IMG/VR virus record: IMGVR_UViG_2724679140_000015
Reading direction: 5' to 3' (one strand)
DNA: 35,494 bases
DNA from: a virus
Taxonomy: Duplodnaviria; Heunggongvirae; Uroviricota; Caudoviricetes
The notes under the pieces: model-generated
Database searches by the model: none
What the model was told of the DNA's origin: nothing
The model's input: only the letters and a program-made list of their open reading frames with translations
In this document: piece after piece, positions 6,953 through 35,494 of the stretch
Layout: every line of letters begins with the position of its first letter
Position numbering within the stretch: position 1 is the first letter of the stretch
Translations under genes and position numbers: made by a program

Positions 6953-9417
6953 CAGCTGTACTCCTTACGTTGTTTCTGAATCAGCAGACGCTCCAGCATT
7001 TTTTCCAGCTCATGCAGGCTCATATTCAGGGCACCAGTCAGCCCGGCAGGCGCTGCGGTTTCCTTACCATTGAGGAAAAACTGAGGATTAAAGCTGATCT
7101 GGATACTGCCAGACGTTCCACCGCCAGTGGCAGTTGCTCCACGGCCTGAATATCCGGCAGTCATAATTTCCGGCGACGGGATACGGGGAACATCCGGTGT
7201 CATTTCAGCGGCCAGACGCTGCCCGGCCAGAGCTGCAAGCGGAGTGGTTCGTTGCAGGCCAATGGCGGCCCCCTGTGCGATATTGTCACCAAATCCCATA
7301 AATACTCGACTCGGTGAATGGATGCCCAGCTTTTCGCTGAACCAGCCACTGATGCTGTCACTCATTTCGGTTATGCTGGTTTTGAGCGACTCCCATTTGT
7401 TTCTGATGCCATTTATCAGCCCGTCGATAAGATGACCACCGAAGTCGGTGAACTTCGTCGGCAAATCAACGCCGAGATATTTCAGCGCAGCTGCAAAGGC
7501 TTTATAAAGCAGCCCCGCAGGAGACCAGTTAACCAGCAGTTTACCAATTCCCACTATACCGCCGTTAAAGGCTTCTTTAATGTCAGCCCAGCGCTGTTTA
7601 AACCAGCTACTGACTGCGCCCCAGTTACGGTAGATAAGGTAAGCTGCTGCCGCAACGGCGGTGATAGCGAGACCGATGGGATTCATCAGCAGCGCCCGGC
7701 CAATCCAGAGAACGGCACGCCCGGCGATCATAATGCCGCGAACCAGCCCCCCTGAGAGCACACTACCCAGTGTTCTGGCTCCTCTGGCGACGGCACCAAA
7801 ACCTGTCACCAGCCAGCGGAGCTTACCGCCTTCCCCCAGTGCAAGCGTCAGACGAAGCCAGTTGGCCCGAAGCAAAACAGCATTTTTCCAGACGCTTACA
7901 AAGGGGGAAATAAGGAGATTCAGCCCAAGCTTGAGACCGATAGTGGCCATCCTGAAAGCGAGTAATGCGCCCACAACCTTTATGGTGCTGCTGACGAGCT
8001 GCGGATTTGCCGCTATCCATTTGCCAACGCTGTCCATTAAAGGAATAAATGTTTCACCCAACTGGAGCAAAGCCGGACGCAAGGATTGCCCGATGCTGAT
8101 AGCAGAATCATTAAAGCCGATCTGCATTCTGCGCCAGCGACCTTCAAGCGTATCATTCTGCTTTGCAGCATCCTTATCCAGGGTAGACATTGCAGCCGGA
8201 GCATTCATTTCCTGCTTACTGGAAAGGTATTTATCCCAGCCCTGTCGCATTGACAGTAAATGGTTGACAGTCTGAATATCGGTAAAGACCTCAGCCAGAC
8301 CAAATGACTCCATGAGTTTCTGCTGACCTTCCTGATCGCCTCTTGCTCCTGCGACTTTCCATTGCTGCAAAAACGCTTTGCCTTTACTGTCGATAAAACG
8401 GTTGGCAATCATCAGTGAAGCTTCGTACTGCGAAAAACCCTGAGCGACGTAATTCTGCATTGACCCCTGGTAATCTACCCCGGCTTTAGCATATTTCTGG
8501 ATGGTATCTCCGCGGCCCATCGCTGCCAGCCAGTTGGACATATTGGTGACCGCTTCCTCTGCAGAGCCACTACCTTTACCGACCTCCAGACTGGCAACAA
8601 TCTGGGTAATTGCATCTTTTCCATAAATGCCACGAGCAGCGAAGGCTTTAGCCATACCGGGTAATGCTTTTGCCATATCCTTCAGCTCAAATGACCCAAG
8701 TTTGGCTCCTGTTGCCGCAATACCAAACGCCTGTTCCAGTTCTTTCGCATCGGTGATTCTGAGCGCATCGCTGAAGGCATAAGTCATTTTGGCAAGGTCG
8801 GTCATATCGGCTTTGGTTGCTGTAGCGGTCTTTCCAAGCATCTCTGCAAACGTTGCTGCCCGTTCAGGGGCCATACCATCAGCAACTAATTGTCCGACTC
8901 CCCCTAACAGAGACTCCTGCAGTTGGTTAACCTTCAGTGCGGCCTGTCTGATAGCCAAGCCAATTGCACGTTCCTGTTTTGCATCCAGGTCTCCTGTGAC
9001 ACTGATATCCCGCAACTGTGATTCAAACGAGGCATATTGTTTAACCGAGGCTATGACCGGTGCGCCCAGCGTTCTGCCAATAGCATAGGTTTCTGCACCC
9101 TGACCATAGAGCGCCATGCGGTTAGCCTTCAACGCATCATCGGTGGCTGATACTGCTGACAGACGGCGCTGCTGACGTTCAATTTGCTCCATGGTGCGGC
9201 TTACCCGCAGCAACTCGCTGTTGAGACGCTGCATCCGGGAAGAACCCAACTGACCATAACGTTCTGTTGCCCGGGTTAAGGCATTCTGACGTTCCTGCAG
9301 ACGGCGGGAGGTATCACCAAGGGAATCAAGGGCGCGTCGGGTGCCACTGACGGCTGAGCGGAAGCTGCTCCCGACAATGCCGCCAATAATGACGCCGACT
9401 GAAAATTCACTGGCCAC
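6952..9417 (-). CDS. tail tape measure protein
   Basis: 821-aa ORF with long alpha-helical region and C-terminal hydrophobic/Gly-rich segments; follows chaperone ORFs. Confidence 0.7.
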   Translation of the reverse strand: MASEFSVGVIIGGIVGSSFRSAVSGTRRALDSLGDTSRRLQERQNALTRATERYGQLGSSRMQRLNSELLRVSRTMEQIERQQRRLSAVSATDDALKANRMALYGQGAETYAIGRTLGAPVIASVKQYASFESQLRDISVTGDLDAKQERAIGLAIRQAALKVNQLQESLLGGVGQLVADGMAPERAATFAEMLGKTATATKADMTDLAKMTYAFSDALRITDAKELEQAFGIAATGAKLGSFELKDMAKALPGMAKAFAARGIYGKDAITQIVASLEVGKGSGSAEEAVTNMSNWLAAMGRGDTIQKYAKAGVDYQGSMQNYVAQGFSQYEASLMIANRFIDSKGKAFLQQWKVAGARGDQEGQQKLMESFGLAEVFTDIQTVNHLLSMRQGWDKYLSSKQEMNAPAAMSTLDKDAAKQNDTLEGRWRRMQIGFNDSAISIGQSLRPALLQLGETFIPLMDSVGKWIAANPQLVSSTIKVVGALLAFRMATIGLKLGLNLLISPFVSVWKNAVLLRANWLRLTLALGEGGKLRWLVTGFGAVARGARTLGSVLSGGLVRGIMIAGRAVLWIGRALLMNPIGLAITAVAAAAYLIYRNWGAVSSWFKQRWADIKEAFNGGIVGIGKLLVNWSPAGLLYKAFAAALKYLGVDLPTKFTDFGGHLIDGLINGIRNKWESLKTSITEMSDSISGWFSEKLGIHSPSRVFMGFGDNIAQGAAIGLQRTTPLAALAGQRLAAEMTPDVPRIPSPEIMTAGYSGRGATATGGGTSGSIQISFNPQFFLNGKETAAPAGLTGALNMSLHELEKMLERLLIQKQRKEYS

Positions 9418-14727: not shown

Positions 14728-15843
14728 TTACAGGCAGCGTGCGACAGCAGCCTCATAGCTGATGCCTTCTTTTTTGGACAGGGCCACTGCTTTCTGATGC
14801 AGGGCCAGACGCTCAGGATCGGCTTCTGCAAACTCCGCCACATCCACCTTCACCGCGTCGCCGACACGATCCTTTGTGGCCTGTTCGGCGAAGTTCATCA
14901 CCGGCTCCCCGTCGGAGAGCAATGAACGGAAGGCGGTGGCCAGCGGTGTGCGGCTTTCCCCCTCAGCAAACTCCACCGGCTTGTCGCCACCGGCGACGGC
15001 ATCCAGCAGGGCAACCACCACGGAGGAGGCGCGGGGAGCCAGACGACCCTCTGCGACCAGTTTTTCTGCAAAGGCCACATTGTCCTTATGCAGTTGATCC
15101 TGTCTGACCTGTGCATCACGCGCATCGCGATCAGCAGCCTGCTGCTTCAGGCGGCGGTTCTCCTCCTGAAGGGCTTCAATCTCTTCTTTTGTCATCGATG
15201 ATTCCTCGTTACTTTTGGAAGACAGCACCTGGCCTGTCTCACTGAATTGCGCACCTGCTGCATCCTGCGACGGTGTGTCGCGGTACGCCTCTTCGCGCAG
15301 ACTGTTGAGCTGCCATTCCGGCAGGACTTTTTCTGCCTCGTCCAGACTGAAGCGGGCGATCAGAAAATCGCGCAGCTTTCCCCACAGGGAGGCATTCGTG
15401 ATGGCCTGCCAGTCGGCGAACTCCACCACACCTTCTTCCTGCTCACTGAAGGACACCTGTTTCAGCCCTTTGACGGAAGGTGGCTGTGCCCCGAGAAAGC
15501 CCACATGGCGAAGGTAGAGCACGCCGGGCTTCGGATTGGACGGTGAATCCGGGAGGTAGAAAGAGGCGGATACCTTTTTGAATCGCCCGTCGGTGACCAT
15601 CTCAGCAAACTGCGGGTCCAGCTGGGCAGGCTCTGCCATCAGATCGGCGCCGCTGAGCGACAGGGCTTTCACCCAGCCCCACGCCGGGTCTTCCGTTCTG
15701 GGATGACCAATCACGAGTGGAGCTTCATGGACGGACGGGTCATAGGCTTTCACGCAGGCGGCAAGATCGTCTGGCGTGAACGGCAGTTTTTTGCCGTGCA
15801 TATCGGTATGAGTACCGGCTTTAAAAATGTGAATGGCTGGCAT
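14728..15843 (-). CDS. head maturation protease/scaffold protein (Mu I-like)
   Basis: 371-aa ORF with acidic coiled-coil C-terminal half, preceding the capsid gene. Confidence 0.6.
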   Translation of the reverse strand: MPAIHIFKAGTHTDMHGKKLPFTPDDLAACVKAYDPSVHEAPLVIGHPRTEDPAWGWVKALSLSGADLMAEPAQLDPQFAEMVTDGRFKKVSASFYLPDSPSNPKPGVLYLRHVGFLGAQPPSVKGLKQVSFSEQEEGVVEFADWQAITNASLWGKLRDFLIARFSLDEAEKVLPEWQLNSLREEAYRDTPSQDAAGAQFSETGQVLSSKSNEESSMTKEEIEALQEENRRLKQQAADRDARDAQVRQDQLHKDNVAFAEKLVAEGRLAPRASSVVVALLDAVAGGDKPVEFAEGESRTPLATAFRSLLSDGEPVMNFAEQATKDRVGDAVKVDVAEFAEADPERLALHQKAVALSKKEGISYEAAVARCL

Positions 15844-16057
15844 TTTGCTGTCCCGCGTTATGTTGTCGGAGACAGTTTGTGAGAAATGCAGGCCCGGCGA
15901 TTTTAATCTGCTTTAGAAAACATCAGGAGTGAAGGACAGGGAAAGCAATGCGGTGAACCGGAGGCGGTTATAAAACAGAGGCTGTAAAGCCTTTATAAAG
16001 GTAATACAGCCCCTCATTCGCTGGCAATGATAAATCACCCGCCTGAAGAGAGAAACC

Positions 16058-16516
16058 TCAGCGACGGGCCGCTGATTCAAGATGGCGGACAATGGTATCG
16101 AGGATGGGGATTACCACTTCAGGCTGTAGTTCTCCATCCCCCGTCACCGGCAGGAACGGGCGGGCCGGAAGTTCAACAGACTCATTACGCCCCGTTTTAC
16201 CCCCGAACTGGTGAATGGCACCGTAAACAACGTTGGTCCCCACAACAGCCTGCCGGTCGTCATGGTCGGTTGATACTGACCCCATCAGACGCCCGGTATC
16301 CTGCAGTGTCTGTCCGTCACGTTCTTCTGCTGCCAGCGAGGGTATCCACCCCGGACGCCCCTCATCAAGAAAGTTAAACTGTGTTTCCGCCAGCAAGGTT
16401 CCGGCGATTTTGCGCATCGCGGGCTCCAGGTCTGTGGCAGCAAGATCCAGCGCACGGAGGCTCCGGCGCAGGGATTTATCGTTAATGGTGATACTGACCA
16501 GGTTATCGGAAGCCAT
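16058..16516 (-). CDS. virion morphogenesis protein (Mu G-like)
   Basis: 152-aa ORF with GAIHQFGG-type motif, downstream of F-like gene. Confidence 0.55.
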   Translation of the reverse strand: MASDNLVSITINDKSLRRSLRALDLAATDLEPAMRKIAGTLLAETQFNFLDEGRPGWIPSLAAEERDGQTLQDTGRLMGSVSTDHDDRQAVVGTNVVYGAIHQFGGKTGRNESVELPARPFLPVTGDGELQPEVVIPILDTIVRHLESAARR

Positions 16517-22892: not shown

Positions 22893-23243
22893 TTAAAGCC
22901 CCATCGCAACAGCCAGGCAGACCGCTGCAACAATCAGTGCACGGCGGATTAACGCAGCAGAAAACACCAGGTGAAGGCCGGTCTGTACCGGGAAACGCCC
23001 TTCAGCCATCAGCCTGTCGTCATGTTTCAGGTACTGACCGGGACGGGCTTTGGGGAAGAGCGAACGGTCAAGCCAGTAACCCAGCACTGCTGCCAGCGTG
23101 ATGAGTGCCAGCTTGTAGATCACAACAGGCAGTTGCTGTGGTGAGACCAGAGCGATGGTGCCCAGCAACAGCACTGAGGTCAGCAGCCAGCCGCTGAGGC
23201 GAGGTTTTTTAACAGGGGGAATGAATGTTTTCAGGTTTTTCAT
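22893..23243 (-). CDS. putative holin (small membrane protein)
   Basis: Two to three predicted transmembrane segments; AAGGAG 6 nt upstream of ATG at 23243; immediately upstream of endolysin. Confidence 0.45.
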   Translation of the reverse strand: MKNLKTFIPPVKKPRLSGWLLTSVLLLGTIALVSPQQLPVVIYKLALITLAAVLGYWLDRSLFPKARPGQYLKHDDRLMAEGRFPVQTGLHLVFSAALIRRALIVAAVCLAVAMGL

Positions 23244-23373
23244 GTGTGTCTCCTTATCTGGTGGAGACAGCATCACAAATACAGGGCGCGAAGGATTTTA
23301 AAGCGCGTTAAGAGAGCCGGGGATACGGGATGTGCAGGATAAACGATGAATTATTCACAGAGGAGAATACGAT

Positions 23374-27046: not shown

Positions 27047-27098
27047 AGATTTTGAGTCTTTGTAAAAGGTTATCACATATCGCAAAAGAGGTATGCAG

Positions 27099-27417: not shown

Positions 27418-28329
27418 ATGGGACGCACCAAATCACCGATTAACACTGAACTGAACGCCGAGGTACCGCTGTCGGATGATCTCAATGTCAGTCTGAACGC
27501 CATGACACAGCATCGCATGGAGATCATGCAGCAGTTTGGCGATGGTCAGCCCTATGAGCGTGATCGCATAGTTCATGAGGCTCGGTTTTATATGGCACAG
27601 AGCGCTGAGGCCATGCTGGAAGCAGGTAAACGACTTATTATTCTCAAAGAAAATGAACCACACGGGGACTTTGTTGGAATTGTAGAAGAACAACTTGGTC
27701 TGCATGTGCGCGCAGCACAACGAATGATGAAAGCATCTTTGAAATACCTTTCACCAAAACTAGAGCCAAAAGCGACAACGTTGTCGCTTTTAGGTAAGGC
27801 AAAATTATTTGAACTTGTTGCTGAAGATGACGACGACCTTGCTGAACTGGCCGACGGCGGCACAGTCGCAGGACTGACGCTTGACGATGTTGATCGCATG
27901 TCAGTACGTGAATTGCGTCAGGCCCTGCGCGAAGCGCGCGAAACCAACGCAGCACAACAGCGCGTACTCGCCGACAAAAATGAAAAAATAGACTCACTCT
28001 CCACCAGACTGGAGAAGAAATCCCGTATTCAGCCGCCTGAGCCTGATGAGGAGGTTAAGAAGCTGCGGGCGGAAGTAACAGCATTAGCGGTTGAGGCGGA
28101 ATCTGCTATCGCCGTTCGACTGTCCAGCGCTTTTGAGACACTGTGCGCATATTGTGCTGAAAACATGATTGATACCCCCAGAGATTTCATGGCAGGCCTG
28201 GTCTGTCAACTGGAAAGCACAGCGCGTAGCCTGCGCTCCACATTTGACCTGCCGGACGAGCCAACAGGCAATGCAGCGCCTTCATGGCTGACTGAGCCGA
28301 CGCCACAGATTAACGGGCTGGAGGCATAA
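27418..28329 (+). CDS. hypothetical early protein
   Basis: 303-aa ORF with TAAGGAG RBS; sits between ner and the transposase gene. Confidence 0.4.
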   Translation: MGRTKSPINTELNAEVPLSDDLNVSLNAMTQHRMEIMQQFGDGQPYERDRIVHEARFYMAQSAEAMLEAGKRLIILKENEPHGDFVGIVEEQLGLHVRAAQRMMKASLKYLSPKLEPKATTLSLLGKAKLFELVAEDDDDLAELADGGTVAGLTLDDVDRMSVRELRQALREARETNAAQQRVLADKNEKIDSLSTRLEKKSRIQPPEPDEEVKKLRAEVTALAVEAESAIAVRLSSAFETLCAYCAENMIDTPRDFMAGLVCQLESTARSLRSTFDLPDEPTGNAAPSWLTEPTPQINGLEA

Positions 28330-30112: not shown

Positions 30113-31279
30113 ATGCTGGTACTGAAGCAGCAACTGAAAGAGGCCCGTATCCCACAGGCGGTGGTGGCGAGAGCTGTCGATGTTTCTGAGGCCACGCTGG
30201 CCCAGATTGTGAATCATAACGCGTGGCCCCGCACCCGCCCCGGAGAAGTGCGCCGGCGTCTTGCGTCCTGGCTGGAAAGTCAGGGGATTGATACAACGAA
30301 GAGTTTTGATGCTGTACAGGGCGCGGCCACGCCCCGTACAGCGGGTACCACAGATAAAACGAGCCTCAGTGAGGAAGAGAATATGTTACTCAAAAAACAG
30401 GTGTTATTTCCAGCAACCAAAAAAGCGTTTGGTCTTTTCCGTGACCCGTTCGCCGACGAAGCCATGCAGGGTTCTGATGATGTGTTCACCACCCCGGACA
30501 TCCGCTATGTGCGTGAAGCGCTGTACCAGACAGCCCGTCATGGTGGGTTTATGGCCGTCATCGGTGAGTCCGGTGCGGGCAAATCCACGCTGCGCCGCGA
30601 CCTGACTGAACGAATCAACCGCGAGAATGCGCCGGTAATTGTTATCGAGCCATACGTCATCGCTATGGAAGACAACGATGTGAAAGGGAAAACTCTGAAG
30701 GCAGCAGCGATTGCCGAAGCCATTATCAGTACCATTGCACCACTGGAAAGCATCAGACGCAGTCAGGACGCCCGCTTTCGCCAGTTGCATCGCGTCCTGA
30801 AAGACAGCAGCCAGGCGGGGTTCAGCCACGTTCTGGTGATTGAGGAGGCCCACAGCCTGCCCATTCCGACACTGAAACACCTCAAACGCTTTTTTGAGCT
30901 GGAGTCCGGTTTCAAAAAACTGCTGTCCATCGTGCTGATTGGCCAGCCGGAACTGGCGACAAAACTGTCTGAACGCAATATGGAAGTCCGTGAAGTCGTT
31001 CAGCGCTGTGAGGTGGTCGAACTTCTGCCTCTGGACAATCACCTTGAAGAGTTTCTGACGTTCAAACTGCAACGGGCCGGTAAACAACTGACGGACATTA
31101 TGGACGCCAGCGCAGTGGATGCCATACGTGCCCGCCTGAGCAATCCGGGAAGTCATCGTAAAAACAGGGTCAGCCTGCTGTATCCGCTGGCCGTCAGTAA
31201 CCTGGTAATAGCCGCCATGAATCTGGCTGCTGAAATCGGGGTTCCACAGGTCAACGCTGACGTTGTCAAAGGGGTTTAA
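30113..31279 (+). CDS. transposition ATPase B (AAA+, MuB/TniB-like)
   Basis: Walker A GESGAGKST; N-terminal HTH-like segment; GAGGAGG RBS 5 nt upstream of ATG 30113. Confidence 0.7.
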   Translation: MLVLKQQLKEARIPQAVVARAVDVSEATLAQIVNHNAWPRTRPGEVRRRLASWLESQGIDTTKSFDAVQGAATPRTAGTTDKTSLSEEENMLLKKQVLFPATKKAFGLFRDPFADEAMQGSDDVFTTPDIRYVREALYQTARHGGFMAVIGESGAGKSTLRRDLTERINRENAPVIVIEPYVIAMEDNDVKGKTLKAAAIAEAIISTIAPLESIRRSQDARFRQLHRVLKDSSQAGFSHVLVIEEAHSLPIPTLKHLKRFFELESGFKKLLSIVLIGQPELATKLSERNMEVREVVQRCEVVELLPLDNHLEEFLTFKLQRAGKQLTDIMDASAVDAIRARLSNPGSHRKNRVSLLYPLAVSNLVIAAMNLAAEIGVPQVNADVVKGV

Positions 31280-34682: not shown

Positions 34683-35124
34683 ACAACGTCTTATCCAGCT
34701 CATTCATATTGCCCGTAATGAACTGGGTATGGATGAAGACACCTACCGCCAGATGTTAGAGGGGCTGACCGGTAAAGCCTCAACCAAAGGAATGGATACC
34801 ACACAACTAAACTGCGTGCTGGAATCCATGAAAAGGAAAGGCTTTCGCGTTAAGCCTGCCGGAAAAGCCAGCTCCGGTTTACAGCTGGATAACCATCCGC
34901 AGTCCAGGAAAATCCGTGCGCTATGGCTTGAAATGGCTGCTGCCGGCATTGTTCGTGACCGTTCAGAAAATGCATTAGCGCGGTGGATCAAGCGGGAAAC
35001 GGGCATCAGCGCCCTGCGCTGGCTCAGTACTGAACAGGCAAGCAGTGTTATTGAGAAACTGAAGAAGTGGCAGCGCAGAGCTGCGGGAGTAAAACATGAG
35101 CGACCTGAATCAGTTTCGAAGTAA
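34672..35124 (+). CDS. GemA-like protein (Mu gp16-like)
   Basis: Located immediately upstream of the Mor-like gene as in Mu; AAGGAG RBS 5 nt upstream of ATG 34672. Confidence 0.5.
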   Translation: MMTKQRLIQLIHIARNELGMDEDTYRQMLEGLTGKASTKGMDTTQLNCVLESMKRKGFRVKPAGKASSGLQLDNHPQSRKIRALWLEMAAAGIVRDRSENALARWIKRETGISALRWLSTEQASSVIEKLKKWQRRAAGVKHERPESVSK

Positions 35125-35494
35125 AGGGCCGGAACTCCTGGTGGAACTGGCACAGCATACCTCTGAGACCGTTCGCGAGATTATTGATATTGAGCCCGCA
35201 ATTGCCGACCAGATTGGTCAGGCCGTCGCGAACCGAATGATGCAGGTCTGGGGCGGGCAAAACGTTTATTTCCCGATGGGCATGGTATGGAAGGTCAGTC
35301 AGCGCGACCGGGAAATCTTCAGGGAGTTTAACGGACGCAACCACCACGAACTGGCCCGCAAGTTTGGTGTTTCGCTTCAGTGGGTCTACAGCGTGGTTAA
35401 GCGGGTCAGAAAAGAAGAACTGGATCGGATGCAGGGCAGGTTGTTTGATGAAGATCTGCCAGAGGAGACGAAAGACGTTAACAAATCCAGATAA
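35096..35494 (+). CDS. mor: Mor-like middle-operon transcription activator (Mor/C family)
   Basis: 132-aa ORF with C-terminal HTH-like region (GRNHHELARKFGVSLQWVYSVVKRVR); position after gemA-like gene. Confidence 0.55.
   Translation: MSDLNQFRSKGPELLVELAQHTSETVREIIDIEPAIADQIGQAVANRMMQVWGGQNVYFPMGMVWKVSQRDREIFREFNGRNHHELARKFGVSLQWVYSVVKRVRKEELDRMQGRLFDEDLPEETKDVNKSR

Follow-up and report, generated by a model that had tools for sequence, protein, structure and literature searches.

A deeply conserved dyad-symmetric element upstream of a predicted Mor-type late promoter in BcepMu-type transposable phages

RESULTS

The G-I Gap of a Mu-like Prophage Contains a Near-palindrome

We analyzed a 35,494-nucleotide stretch of viral DNA (IMG/VR record IMGVR_UViG_2724679140_000015, hereafter the window), which represents a nearly complete BcepMu-type, Mu-like prophage of Escherichia coli, and we focus here on a 32-bp near-palindrome found in an intergenic gap of its late gene block. 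Phage PhiKM is 98.8% identical to the window, and the region is found in 637 of 5,426 complete E. coli genomes, ABU 83972 among them. The late genes are encoded on the minus strand in the order holin (22893-23276), SLT lysin, gp27, large terminase, portal, F, G and I-like gene, followed by capsid and tail genes. The early genes start at 27093 on the plus strand, and the last of them codes for a Mor/C-family protein, the presumed activator of all four late promoters described below. The near-palindrome is located in the 214 bp that separate the stop codon of the G-like open reading frame (ORF) from the ATG of the I-like ORF, both on the minus strand (15844-16057). An earlier note on this DNA (the original prediction) had considered this gap to be non-coding, and the ORF boundaries agree. 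A 59-amino acid ORF (15913-16092) and a 41-amino acid coding sequence annotated in phage KP12 were rejected as genes of the gap, as neither is conserved. The I-like gene, taken for a protease/scaffold gene in the original prediction, has no Pfam match; its BcepMu counterpart gp32 is annotated as 'Mu I equivalent', with the scaffold gene nested within it.

The sequence matches the original description of the element as a near-palindrome built around a perfect 12-bp palindrome and flanked by 7-bp arms (GGCTGTA/TACAGCC), with a 3-nucleotide mismatch on either side between arm and 12-mer; its 32 nucleotides end at 16011, one base before the end first given (16012). Around the center at 15995.5, 13 of 16 pairs are complementary. 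First-order Markov simulations of the window produce 0.18 such centers per window, with at least one in 17% of the simulations, and 12 perfect 12-bp palindromes are observed in the window versus 9.1 expected. By itself, the palindrome is not beyond chance, and that we regard it as real is because of its conservation in relatives, not because of its statistics. Two slightly better near-palindromes (14 of 16 pairs), centered after bases 27779 and 30326, are both intragenic, one being located in a DUF3102 gene (27764-27795, AGCCAAAAGCGACAAC/GTTGTCGCTTTTAGGT) and the other in the gene for a MuB-like ATPase (30311-30342, GCTGTACAGGGCGCGG/CCACGCCCCGTACAGC). No further copy of the palindrome, of its arms or of CTTTATAAAG was found at a regulatory position in the window. 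A second perfect CTTTATAAAG (GCTTTATAAAGC) is located within the tape-measure gene, at 7499-7510. The Rfam 15 covariance models returned no match with an E value of up to 1 on either strand of 15700-16300.

The Element Is Conserved from Escherichia to Burkholderia

We compared the gap to the corresponding regions of related phages and prophages. Relatives with 88% overall identity (Klebsiella phage KP12, phage Phi06_2974 B, prophages of Pantoea, Mixta, Trabulsiella and others) match the window at 100% over the element and the preceding 45 bp, and the following 50 bp are scrambled. Relatives with a 74% identical I protein have the left outer arm swapped for an unrelated 11-bp GC hairpin, and retain CCTTTATAAAGG-TTTACAGCC. 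At 51-66% identity (Pectobacterium, Brenneria, Dickeya, Serratia and Pantoea symbionts), (G/C)CTTTATAAAG(G/C) persists in an otherwise unalignable gap, and it does so again at 37-51% identity (many Pseudomonas, Limnobaculum). The core is also present in Erwinia phages, embedded in intergenic DNA that is unalignable. Enteric lineages contain CTTTACAG on the 3' side of the core; the Pseudomonas lineages have GTAAA(N)G on its 5' side, or a direct copy of CTTTACAG 11 bp upstream. The most symmetric copy is found in the gp31-gp32 gap of the Burkholderia type phage BcepMu (CCCGTAAAG-TTTTATAAAGG-CTTTACGGG), and the copies in phages Komp_PAO1_1 and B3 read CGTAAAGCTTTATAAAGCTACG and CGTTTATAAACA, respectively. 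Overall, 41 of 80 species-representative loci contain TTTATAAA within the 270 nucleotides that precede the I gene, as compared with 0.6 expected from its frequency elsewhere in those loci (14 occurrences in 520 kb, or 0.0073 per gap). The original prediction had made its proposal dependent on conservation in related phages, and this conservation is very deep, extending from Escherichia to Burkholderia, an outcome that clearly favors a function. A full-text search for CTTTATAAAG together with 'phage' yielded nothing relevant, and no description of the element was found in the searchable literature, outside of which lie the BcepMu, B3 and Mu-like gyrase-site papers.

In more distant relatives (Gallionella, Oxalobacteraceae, Methylophilus and others; loci L044, L177, L214, L218, L176 and L182) the TTTATAAA element is absent. 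These carry tandem TTTAACGG repeats spaced 11 bp apart (TTTTTAACGGGGGTTTAACGG) some 150-220 nucleotides upstream of the I start and, near the promoter, a CGGAA-N5-TTCCG dyad followed by CTTAAC, so that the layout is the same and the motifs are different.

Sequence and Symmetry Rather than RNA Pairing Are Conserved

The original prediction had considered a regulatory hairpin, and in the window lineage the element can indeed form a putative terminator-like hairpin upon transcription. Its calculated folding energy is -19.6 to -20.7 kcal/mol (z of -2.6, with 3 of 200 shuffles folding as well), or -18.4 kcal/mol in a scan for hairpins with T-rich tails, and the stem-loop is followed by a U-rich tract (GUUUUAUAA), the whole lying 46-92 nucleotides past the G stop codon. 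A simple terminator scan flagged only a sub-hairpin at this position; the scan for hairpins with T-rich tails recovers the annotated terminator of Mu at the equivalent place. Across relatives as a whole, pairing is not kept while the sequence drifts. In 17 aligned lineages, the inner helix is constant except for a symmetric swap (CC..GG in 7 and GC..GC in 6 lineages), and only 53% of the alignment cells show pairing in the outer 10-bp helix. Enteric lineages mainly keep the right half-site and Pseudomonas lineages the left one. That a single arm can disappear from an otherwise intact element is what would be expected of independent half-sites in a symmetric DNA site and not of an evolving RNA stem. 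The alignments thus indicate that selection acts on sequence and dyad symmetry and not on one hairpin, and we treat the predicted terminator-like hairpin as a real but lineage-specific second property. Hairpin and T-rich tail occur together in the window, in BcepMu (-15.0 kcal/mol), Serratia, the Pantoea type and Limnobaculum. Many lineages contain a separate GC-rich hairpin between the G stop codon and the element.

In Mu (L060), one predicted terminator hairpin (180-201) lies inside the annotated middle promoter, and another (1384-1407) overlaps the beginning of the annotated lys late promoter. Operon junctions in Mu thus seem usually to have a terminator placed directly before an activator-dependent promoter, as in the gap analyzed here.

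Table 1. Features of the G-I gap and of the late regulatory system, in window coordinates
Feature	Position	Strand	Remarks
Near-palindrome (32 bp), the window's copy of the conserved element	15980-16011	.	Plus strand GGCTGTAAAGCCTTTATAAAGGTAATACAGCC; sense (minus) strand GGCTGTATTACCTTTATAAAGGCTTTACAGCC
Perfect 12-bp palindrome CCTTTATAAAGG	15990-16001	.	Contains the core TTTATAAAG, invariant in 17 aligned lineages
Outer right half-site CTTTACA	15983-15989	-	11-bp direct repeat of the inner CTTTATA; kept in Enterobacterales and BcepMu
Degenerate outer left half-site GGCTGTATTAC	16001-16011	-	Ideal symmetric form GGCTGTAAAGC; Pseudomonas and Burkholderia copies retain GTAAAG
RNA hairpin, if transcribed	15977-16014	-	10-bp outer stem with one G-U pair, 3 x 3 internal loop, 4-bp inner stem
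T-rich tail GTTTTATAA	15968-15976	-	Directly 3' of the hairpin; together resembling an intrinsic terminator
Conserved block GGCGGGTGATTTATC	16029-16043	-	Starts 14 nucleotides past the G stop codon
Predicted Mor/C-type activator box of P_I, in conserved block TTTTCTAAAGCAGATTAAAATC	15899-15920	-	CTAA-AGCAGA-TTAA (CTAAAGCAGATTAA) at 15916-15903; 45 bits (62-nucleotide matrix), 25.1 bits (box-only matrix)
Predicted -10 hexamer CAAACT of P_I	15874-15879	-	30.5 bp downstream of the dyad center
Predicted 5'-leader hairpin of the I mRNA	15848-15875	-	Start-site region CTGTC pairs with ribosome-binding region GACAG; -10.7 kcal/mol
Predicted late promoter, holin	23317-23256	-	66 bits (62-nucleotide matrix)
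Predicted late promoter P_I, I-like gene	15922-15861	-	45 bits (62-nucleotide matrix)
Predicted late promoter, tail-assembly/tape-measure block	10004-9943	-	19 bits; absent from matrix training
Predicted late promoter, baseplate gene	4204-4143	-	24 bits; absent from matrix training
Mor/C-family activator gene	35096-35494	+	The only one in the window; Pfam Mor, E value 1e-43
Mu G-like virion morphogenesis gene	16058-16516	-	Last gene of the upstream late operon; Pfam Phage_tail_S, E value 1e-22
I-like protease/scaffold gene	14728-15843	-	First gene downstream of P_I; 48.5% identity to BcepMu gp32

The Gap Harbors a Separate Predicted Mor-type Promoter

A promoter motif was derived from a comparison between the G-I gap and the region upstream of the holin gene, to which about 60 distinct holin upstream regions of relatives were subsequently added. 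The motif common to the holin and I promoters is T-TAA-(N6, G+C-rich)-TTAAAA(T/G)C, followed 23 bp on by an nAnnCT -10 hexamer (GATGCT at the holin gene and CAAACT at the I gene), the spacing being identical in both. A 62-nucleotide matrix trained on the holin and I promoters of relatives only identifies exactly four sites on the late (minus) strand of the window, the next best site scoring -9 bits. The two sites that had no part in the training are each located just upstream of a tail or baseplate gene, and a matrix of the box alone returns the same four sites with 20-28 bits. The phage is thus predicted to have four Mor-type late promoters, like Mu. Mor/C sites have been described as 16-bp imperfect dyads centered at -43.5 that overlap the -35 region (PMC2582627, PMC4287176). 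In P_I, the dyad center is found at about -42.5 to -43.5 relative to a transcription start near 15867, as inferred from the position rule, and the P_I region of Mu also contains a CAAACT hexamer. The original prediction had expected an activator-dependent late promoter in this gap, as in Mu, and a candidate Mor/C-type box and -10 hexamer are indeed present.

The activator site itself had been tentatively assigned to the palindrome, and here the evidence points elsewhere. The center of the palindrome is located 86 bp upstream of the P_I Mor box, 116 bp upstream of CAAACT and about 129 bp upstream of the predicted start. The geometry of a Mor site, with its center near -43.5 and a -10 hexamer about 30 bp on, is found at the 15916-15903 box and not at the palindrome. 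Likewise, the TTAA-N6-TTAA box recurs at all four late promoters, whereas the palindrome, which the original prediction proposed to look for in other late intergenic regions, is not present at the other three. On the box-only matrix the palindrome scores 4.3 bits versus 20-28 bits for the true boxes, which is no better than TTTATAAA placed in random flanks (95th percentile, 6.8 bits). A sigma-70 promoter scan found none in the gap, and with TTTACA taken as a -35 element, no conserved -10 at 16-18 bp is visible by eye in any lineage.

The holin mRNA leader (23245-23272, minus strand) is predicted to fold as well, with about -10 kcal/mol; in the holin and I leaders the predicted start-site region (CTGTCTCC) pairs with the ribosome-binding region (GGAGACA or GGGACAG). 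Similar leader pairings can be seen by eye in enteric relatives (CTGTCCC/GGGACAG) and in Pseudomonas relatives (CTGTGCGC/GCGCACAG), where different sequences appear to maintain the pairing. The leader hairpins may control translation or stabilize the 5' end.

The Element Tends to Be Helically Phased with the Mor Box

The distance between the centers of the element and of the Mor box falls into classes spaced by about 10.5 bp. For 14 lineages with no more than 60% identity in the intervening DNA, it is 66, 67, 76, 77, 77, 86, 86, 88, 88, 107, 110, 128, 132 and 195 bp. When five periods were tried against uniform spacing, the mean resultant length reached 0.78 at a period of 10.75 bp (P = 0.00025), and hand-picked sets gave P = 0.0004 and P = 0.0035. 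The distance is 88 bp in all of four Pseudomonas lineages whose intervening DNA is, by eye, visibly different. The element thus tends to occupy the helix face on which the Mor box lies, which points to an interaction at the DNA level, between a factor bound to the element and the Mor-RNA polymerase complex.

Prophage Ends

Bases 1-297 of the window look like host DNA, namely the end of an apparent membrane-protein gene, judging from the encoded protein. The left prophage end is located near 280-520. Beside the apparent host gene end, direct repeats of GCGAGATAAAT are found at 280-312, 22 bp apart, probably representing the transposase-binding sites of the left prophage end. As the near-palindrome is unlike these repeats, a transposase end-type site was rejected for it. 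The window ends with the Mor stop codon, and the ABU 83972 prophage extends about 1.1 kb past Mor.

DISCUSSION

A Proposed Upstream DNA Site Coupled to P_I

The conserved, symmetric, single-copy element in the G-I gap is distinct from the Mor box with which it is phased, and we infer that it is bound by protein, that it has an effect on P_I and that it may take part in transcription termination. We favor, with moderate confidence, a sequence-specific upstream DNA site that is coupled to P_I and that would have an additional, lineage-specific role as a terminator. Such an element would be old and dyad-symmetric, with the ideal form GTAAAG-n-CTTTATAAAG-n-CTTTAC and CTTTAYA heptamers 10-11 bp apart. 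BcepMu-type transposable phages retain it in their G-I gap, close to the genome center and upstream of the Mor-dependent late promoter for the protease/scaffold, capsid and tail genes. Most likely, the duplex DNA would be recognized in a sequence-specific manner by a conserved protein. The bound protein would then act together with the promoter complex through DNA looping or bending, as we propose because the element keeps to the helix face of the Mor box. In this lineage, in BcepMu and in a few others, the hairpin (about -18 to -20 kcal/mol) would plausibly end or stabilize the holin-to-G late transcript, like the terminator annotated at the corresponding position in Mu.

Several points weigh against this interpretation. 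Hairpin and T-rich tail are absent in about half of the lineages, and the tail is lost even in KP12-type relatives. Some close relatives show out-of-phase spacings of 82, 83, 84 and 92 bp, so that phasing is a tendency and not a rule, unless the out-of-phase copies are decaying. When compared by eye with the consensus sequences of IHF, Fis, LexA, TyrR and CRP, the element fits none of them, and no binder was found. It is present at only one of four late promoters and is thus not needed for Mor activation as such. The start site of P_I is a prediction. Finally, a single-copy, near-central element is also what a Mu-type gyrase site would be expected to look like.

The Mor/C promoters of Mu (Pm, Plys, PI, PP and Pmom) resemble the system predicted here in many respects: the single Mor-family gene of the window is found at the early operon's end, its four late promoters lack a -35 element and have a weak -10 as well as a dyad with a G+C-rich 6-bp spacer about 43 bp before the start, and one of them is located in the G-I gap. 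Mu differs in having two Mor/C-family genes (Mor and C), where the window phage has one. The palindrome in turn differs from the Mor/C dyad of Mu in its position some 86 bp farther upstream, its A/T-rich center, its half-sites, its length, which is about double, and its occurrence at only one of four promoters.

A promoter-specific upstream operator is known from Mu, where OxyR sites are found upstream of the C box at Pmom. There, too, a regulator site precedes the Mor/C box at one late promoter only, and the half-sites are about one helical turn apart; the sequence of our element and the promoter concerned are different, and it contains no GATC sites.

More tentatively, we suggest that the gap contains a cis-element of about 30 bp, for which no description was found in the literature searched, organized around an invariant TTTATAAA in BcepMu-type phages of beta- and gammaproteobacteria, which might dock a host or phage protein that controls this late promoter remotely, or might couple late transcription to prophage topology, the role of the strong gyrase site in Mu.

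A Possible Counterpart of the Mu Strong Gyrase Site

Ranked second, and possible though unlikely in our view, is that the element, perhaps together with the block GGCGGGTGATTTATC, corresponds, in the BcepMu group, to the strong gyrase site of Mu. In this reading, A/T-G/C-phased DNA near the middle of the prophage would be bound and wrapped by host gyrase, whose processive supercoiling would help the prophage ends to pair for replicative transposition. A gyrase site is located between gpG and gpI in both Mu and FluMu (PMC2628397), and in the G-I gap of Mu the position at which the strong gyrase site is cut is followed by a hairpin terminator of 46 bp and then by P_I. Our element is likewise G-I intergenic and near the prophage center, at 48.6% of the ABU 83972 prophage, about 43% of the window and 51% of BcepMu, as compared with 48.7% for the Mu site; conserved gene order alone, however, gives a central position. 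As in Mu, it is a single-copy, long imperfect palindrome with an A/T-rich center, followed by T-rich sequence and then by P_I, and it shows 10-11-bp phasing of A/T patches. It reads like an arm of the published gyrase consensus (CCTTTAAGG), and the right arm of the Mu site is known to require phased bending signals (PMC10052514, PMC6379681). The 10.75-bp A/T periodicity around the element ranks in the top 0.08% of window positions, and that of the Mu right arm in the top 0.18%. With an A/T-phase template made from the gyrase consensus, z reaches 3.38 in the gap as compared with 3.65 at the true Mu site, which the template locates within 5 bp, but the power of such template tests is too low to decide (P per 151-bp stretch of 0.08 at the true Mu site and 0.13 in the gap). 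Direct matching to the published 133-bp gyrase consensus, whether base by base or in G+C/A+T classes, missed the Mu strong gyrase site used as control and was discarded. The 16043-16029 block weakly resembles the Mu cleavage core GCGG(C/G)TGATTTTAT (in the opposite orientation, with 12 of 13 bases agreeing when a single gap is allowed), but by our estimate against the GenBank Mu sequence this resemblance is at chance level and represents a lead only.

The element and the Mu site share no significant sequence homology. Degenerate arms made of bending signals do not predict a 9-10-mer that is invariant from Escherichia to Burkholderia, that is, across distant hosts, and gyrase wrapping does not predict helical phasing with the promoter.

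In the D3112-like phage Ab30 (L346, LN610590, 737-800), a published central segment free of transposon insertions, proposed to be a gyrase site, directly follows the G homologue. It contains a different palindrome, with two copies of GGCACAWTGTGCC, whose GGCAC...GTGCC arms also form a hairpin after G in Pectobacterium and Brenneria relatives (L155, L156).

A Terminator Only as an Alternative Explanation

Less likely again is that the element serves solely as an intrinsic terminator or RNA 3'-end hairpin, which would close or stabilize the holin-to-G late transcript ahead of P_I. Like intrinsic terminators and REP-like 3' hairpins, it is found just past the last gene of an operon and combines, in this lineage, a stable stem with a U-rich tail, features shared by the BcepMu, Serratia, Pantoea-type and Limnobaculum copies. 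Its position matches that of a TransTermHP terminator annotated in Mu, and the base of the stem, inspected by eye, varies and yet pairs in the window type (G-U, G-C, A-U), in the KP12 type (G-C, G-C) and in L291 (a bulge and GGCG/CGCC). The outer helix is however paired in little more than half of the alignment cells, one arm often being lost although the core and the remaining arm do not vary. Even at 88% overall identity, the T-rich tail is no longer conserved. In many lineages the separate GC-rich hairpin is present between the G stop codon and the element. Unlike such hairpins, the element is A/T-rich at its center, and it is the unpaired core, not the pairing, that is conserved across the family. 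A terminator would leave this invariant loop and core sequence and the phasing with the Mor box unexplained, and no Rfam model matches.

Auxiliary or Primary Mor Sites as Improbable Alternatives

We consider it improbable that the element is an auxiliary, low-affinity Mor site, at which a second Mor dimer would contact the box-bound dimer by looping out 66-130 bp and thereby boost P_I. The phasing with the Mor box is consistent with such an arrangement, and Mor/C-family proteins form tetramers according to a preprint (10.1101/2025.05.02.651988). In the set examined, the element occurs only in phages with a TTAA-N6-TTAAAA box, and the distant relatives differ at both positions. The half-sites are alike (GTAAAG in the element, CTAAAG/GTAAAG in the box), with 12 of 18 positions being identical by eye in BcepMu, and when the box-only matrix is applied, the element scores above the window's 99.9th percentile. 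Its copies nevertheless reach only 0.2-11.7 bits versus 20-28 bits for the true boxes, no better than TTTATAAA in random flanks, their half-site spacing is unlike that of the box, and there is none at the other three late promoters.

That the palindrome is itself the primary Mor/C-type site of P_I, as in the original prediction, is close to refuted: it is a dyad in the gap equivalent to the P_I gap of Mu, with TATAAC, the only -10-like hexamer nearby, 23.5 bp downstream of its center, but this spacing would put the center at -35.5 rather than at -43.5 (PMC2582627), TATAAC is not kept in the 88% identical relatives, the motif is missing from the other late promoters, and a separate conserved box and -10 with canonical spacing are found downstream. 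The late promoter in the gap, the hairpin and the notion of a conserved and probably regulatory element hold up from that prediction; the role as the primary site of the activator does not.

Implications

This prophage family is common in E. coli, and the map of its late regulation presented here consists of four predicted Mor-type promoters and one extra, central element. If the element functions as a remote, helically phased control site, the Mor/C activation model would gain a new layer. Should it bind gyrase instead, it would provide a gyrase site for the BcepMu group, in which a search of phage KS10 with the Mu gyrase site yielded none (PMC2628397), and a second, sequence-unrelated case for learning on what the strength of a gyrase site depends. 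As a short and invariant sequence that is easily mutated, the element lends itself to direct tests of both possibilities.

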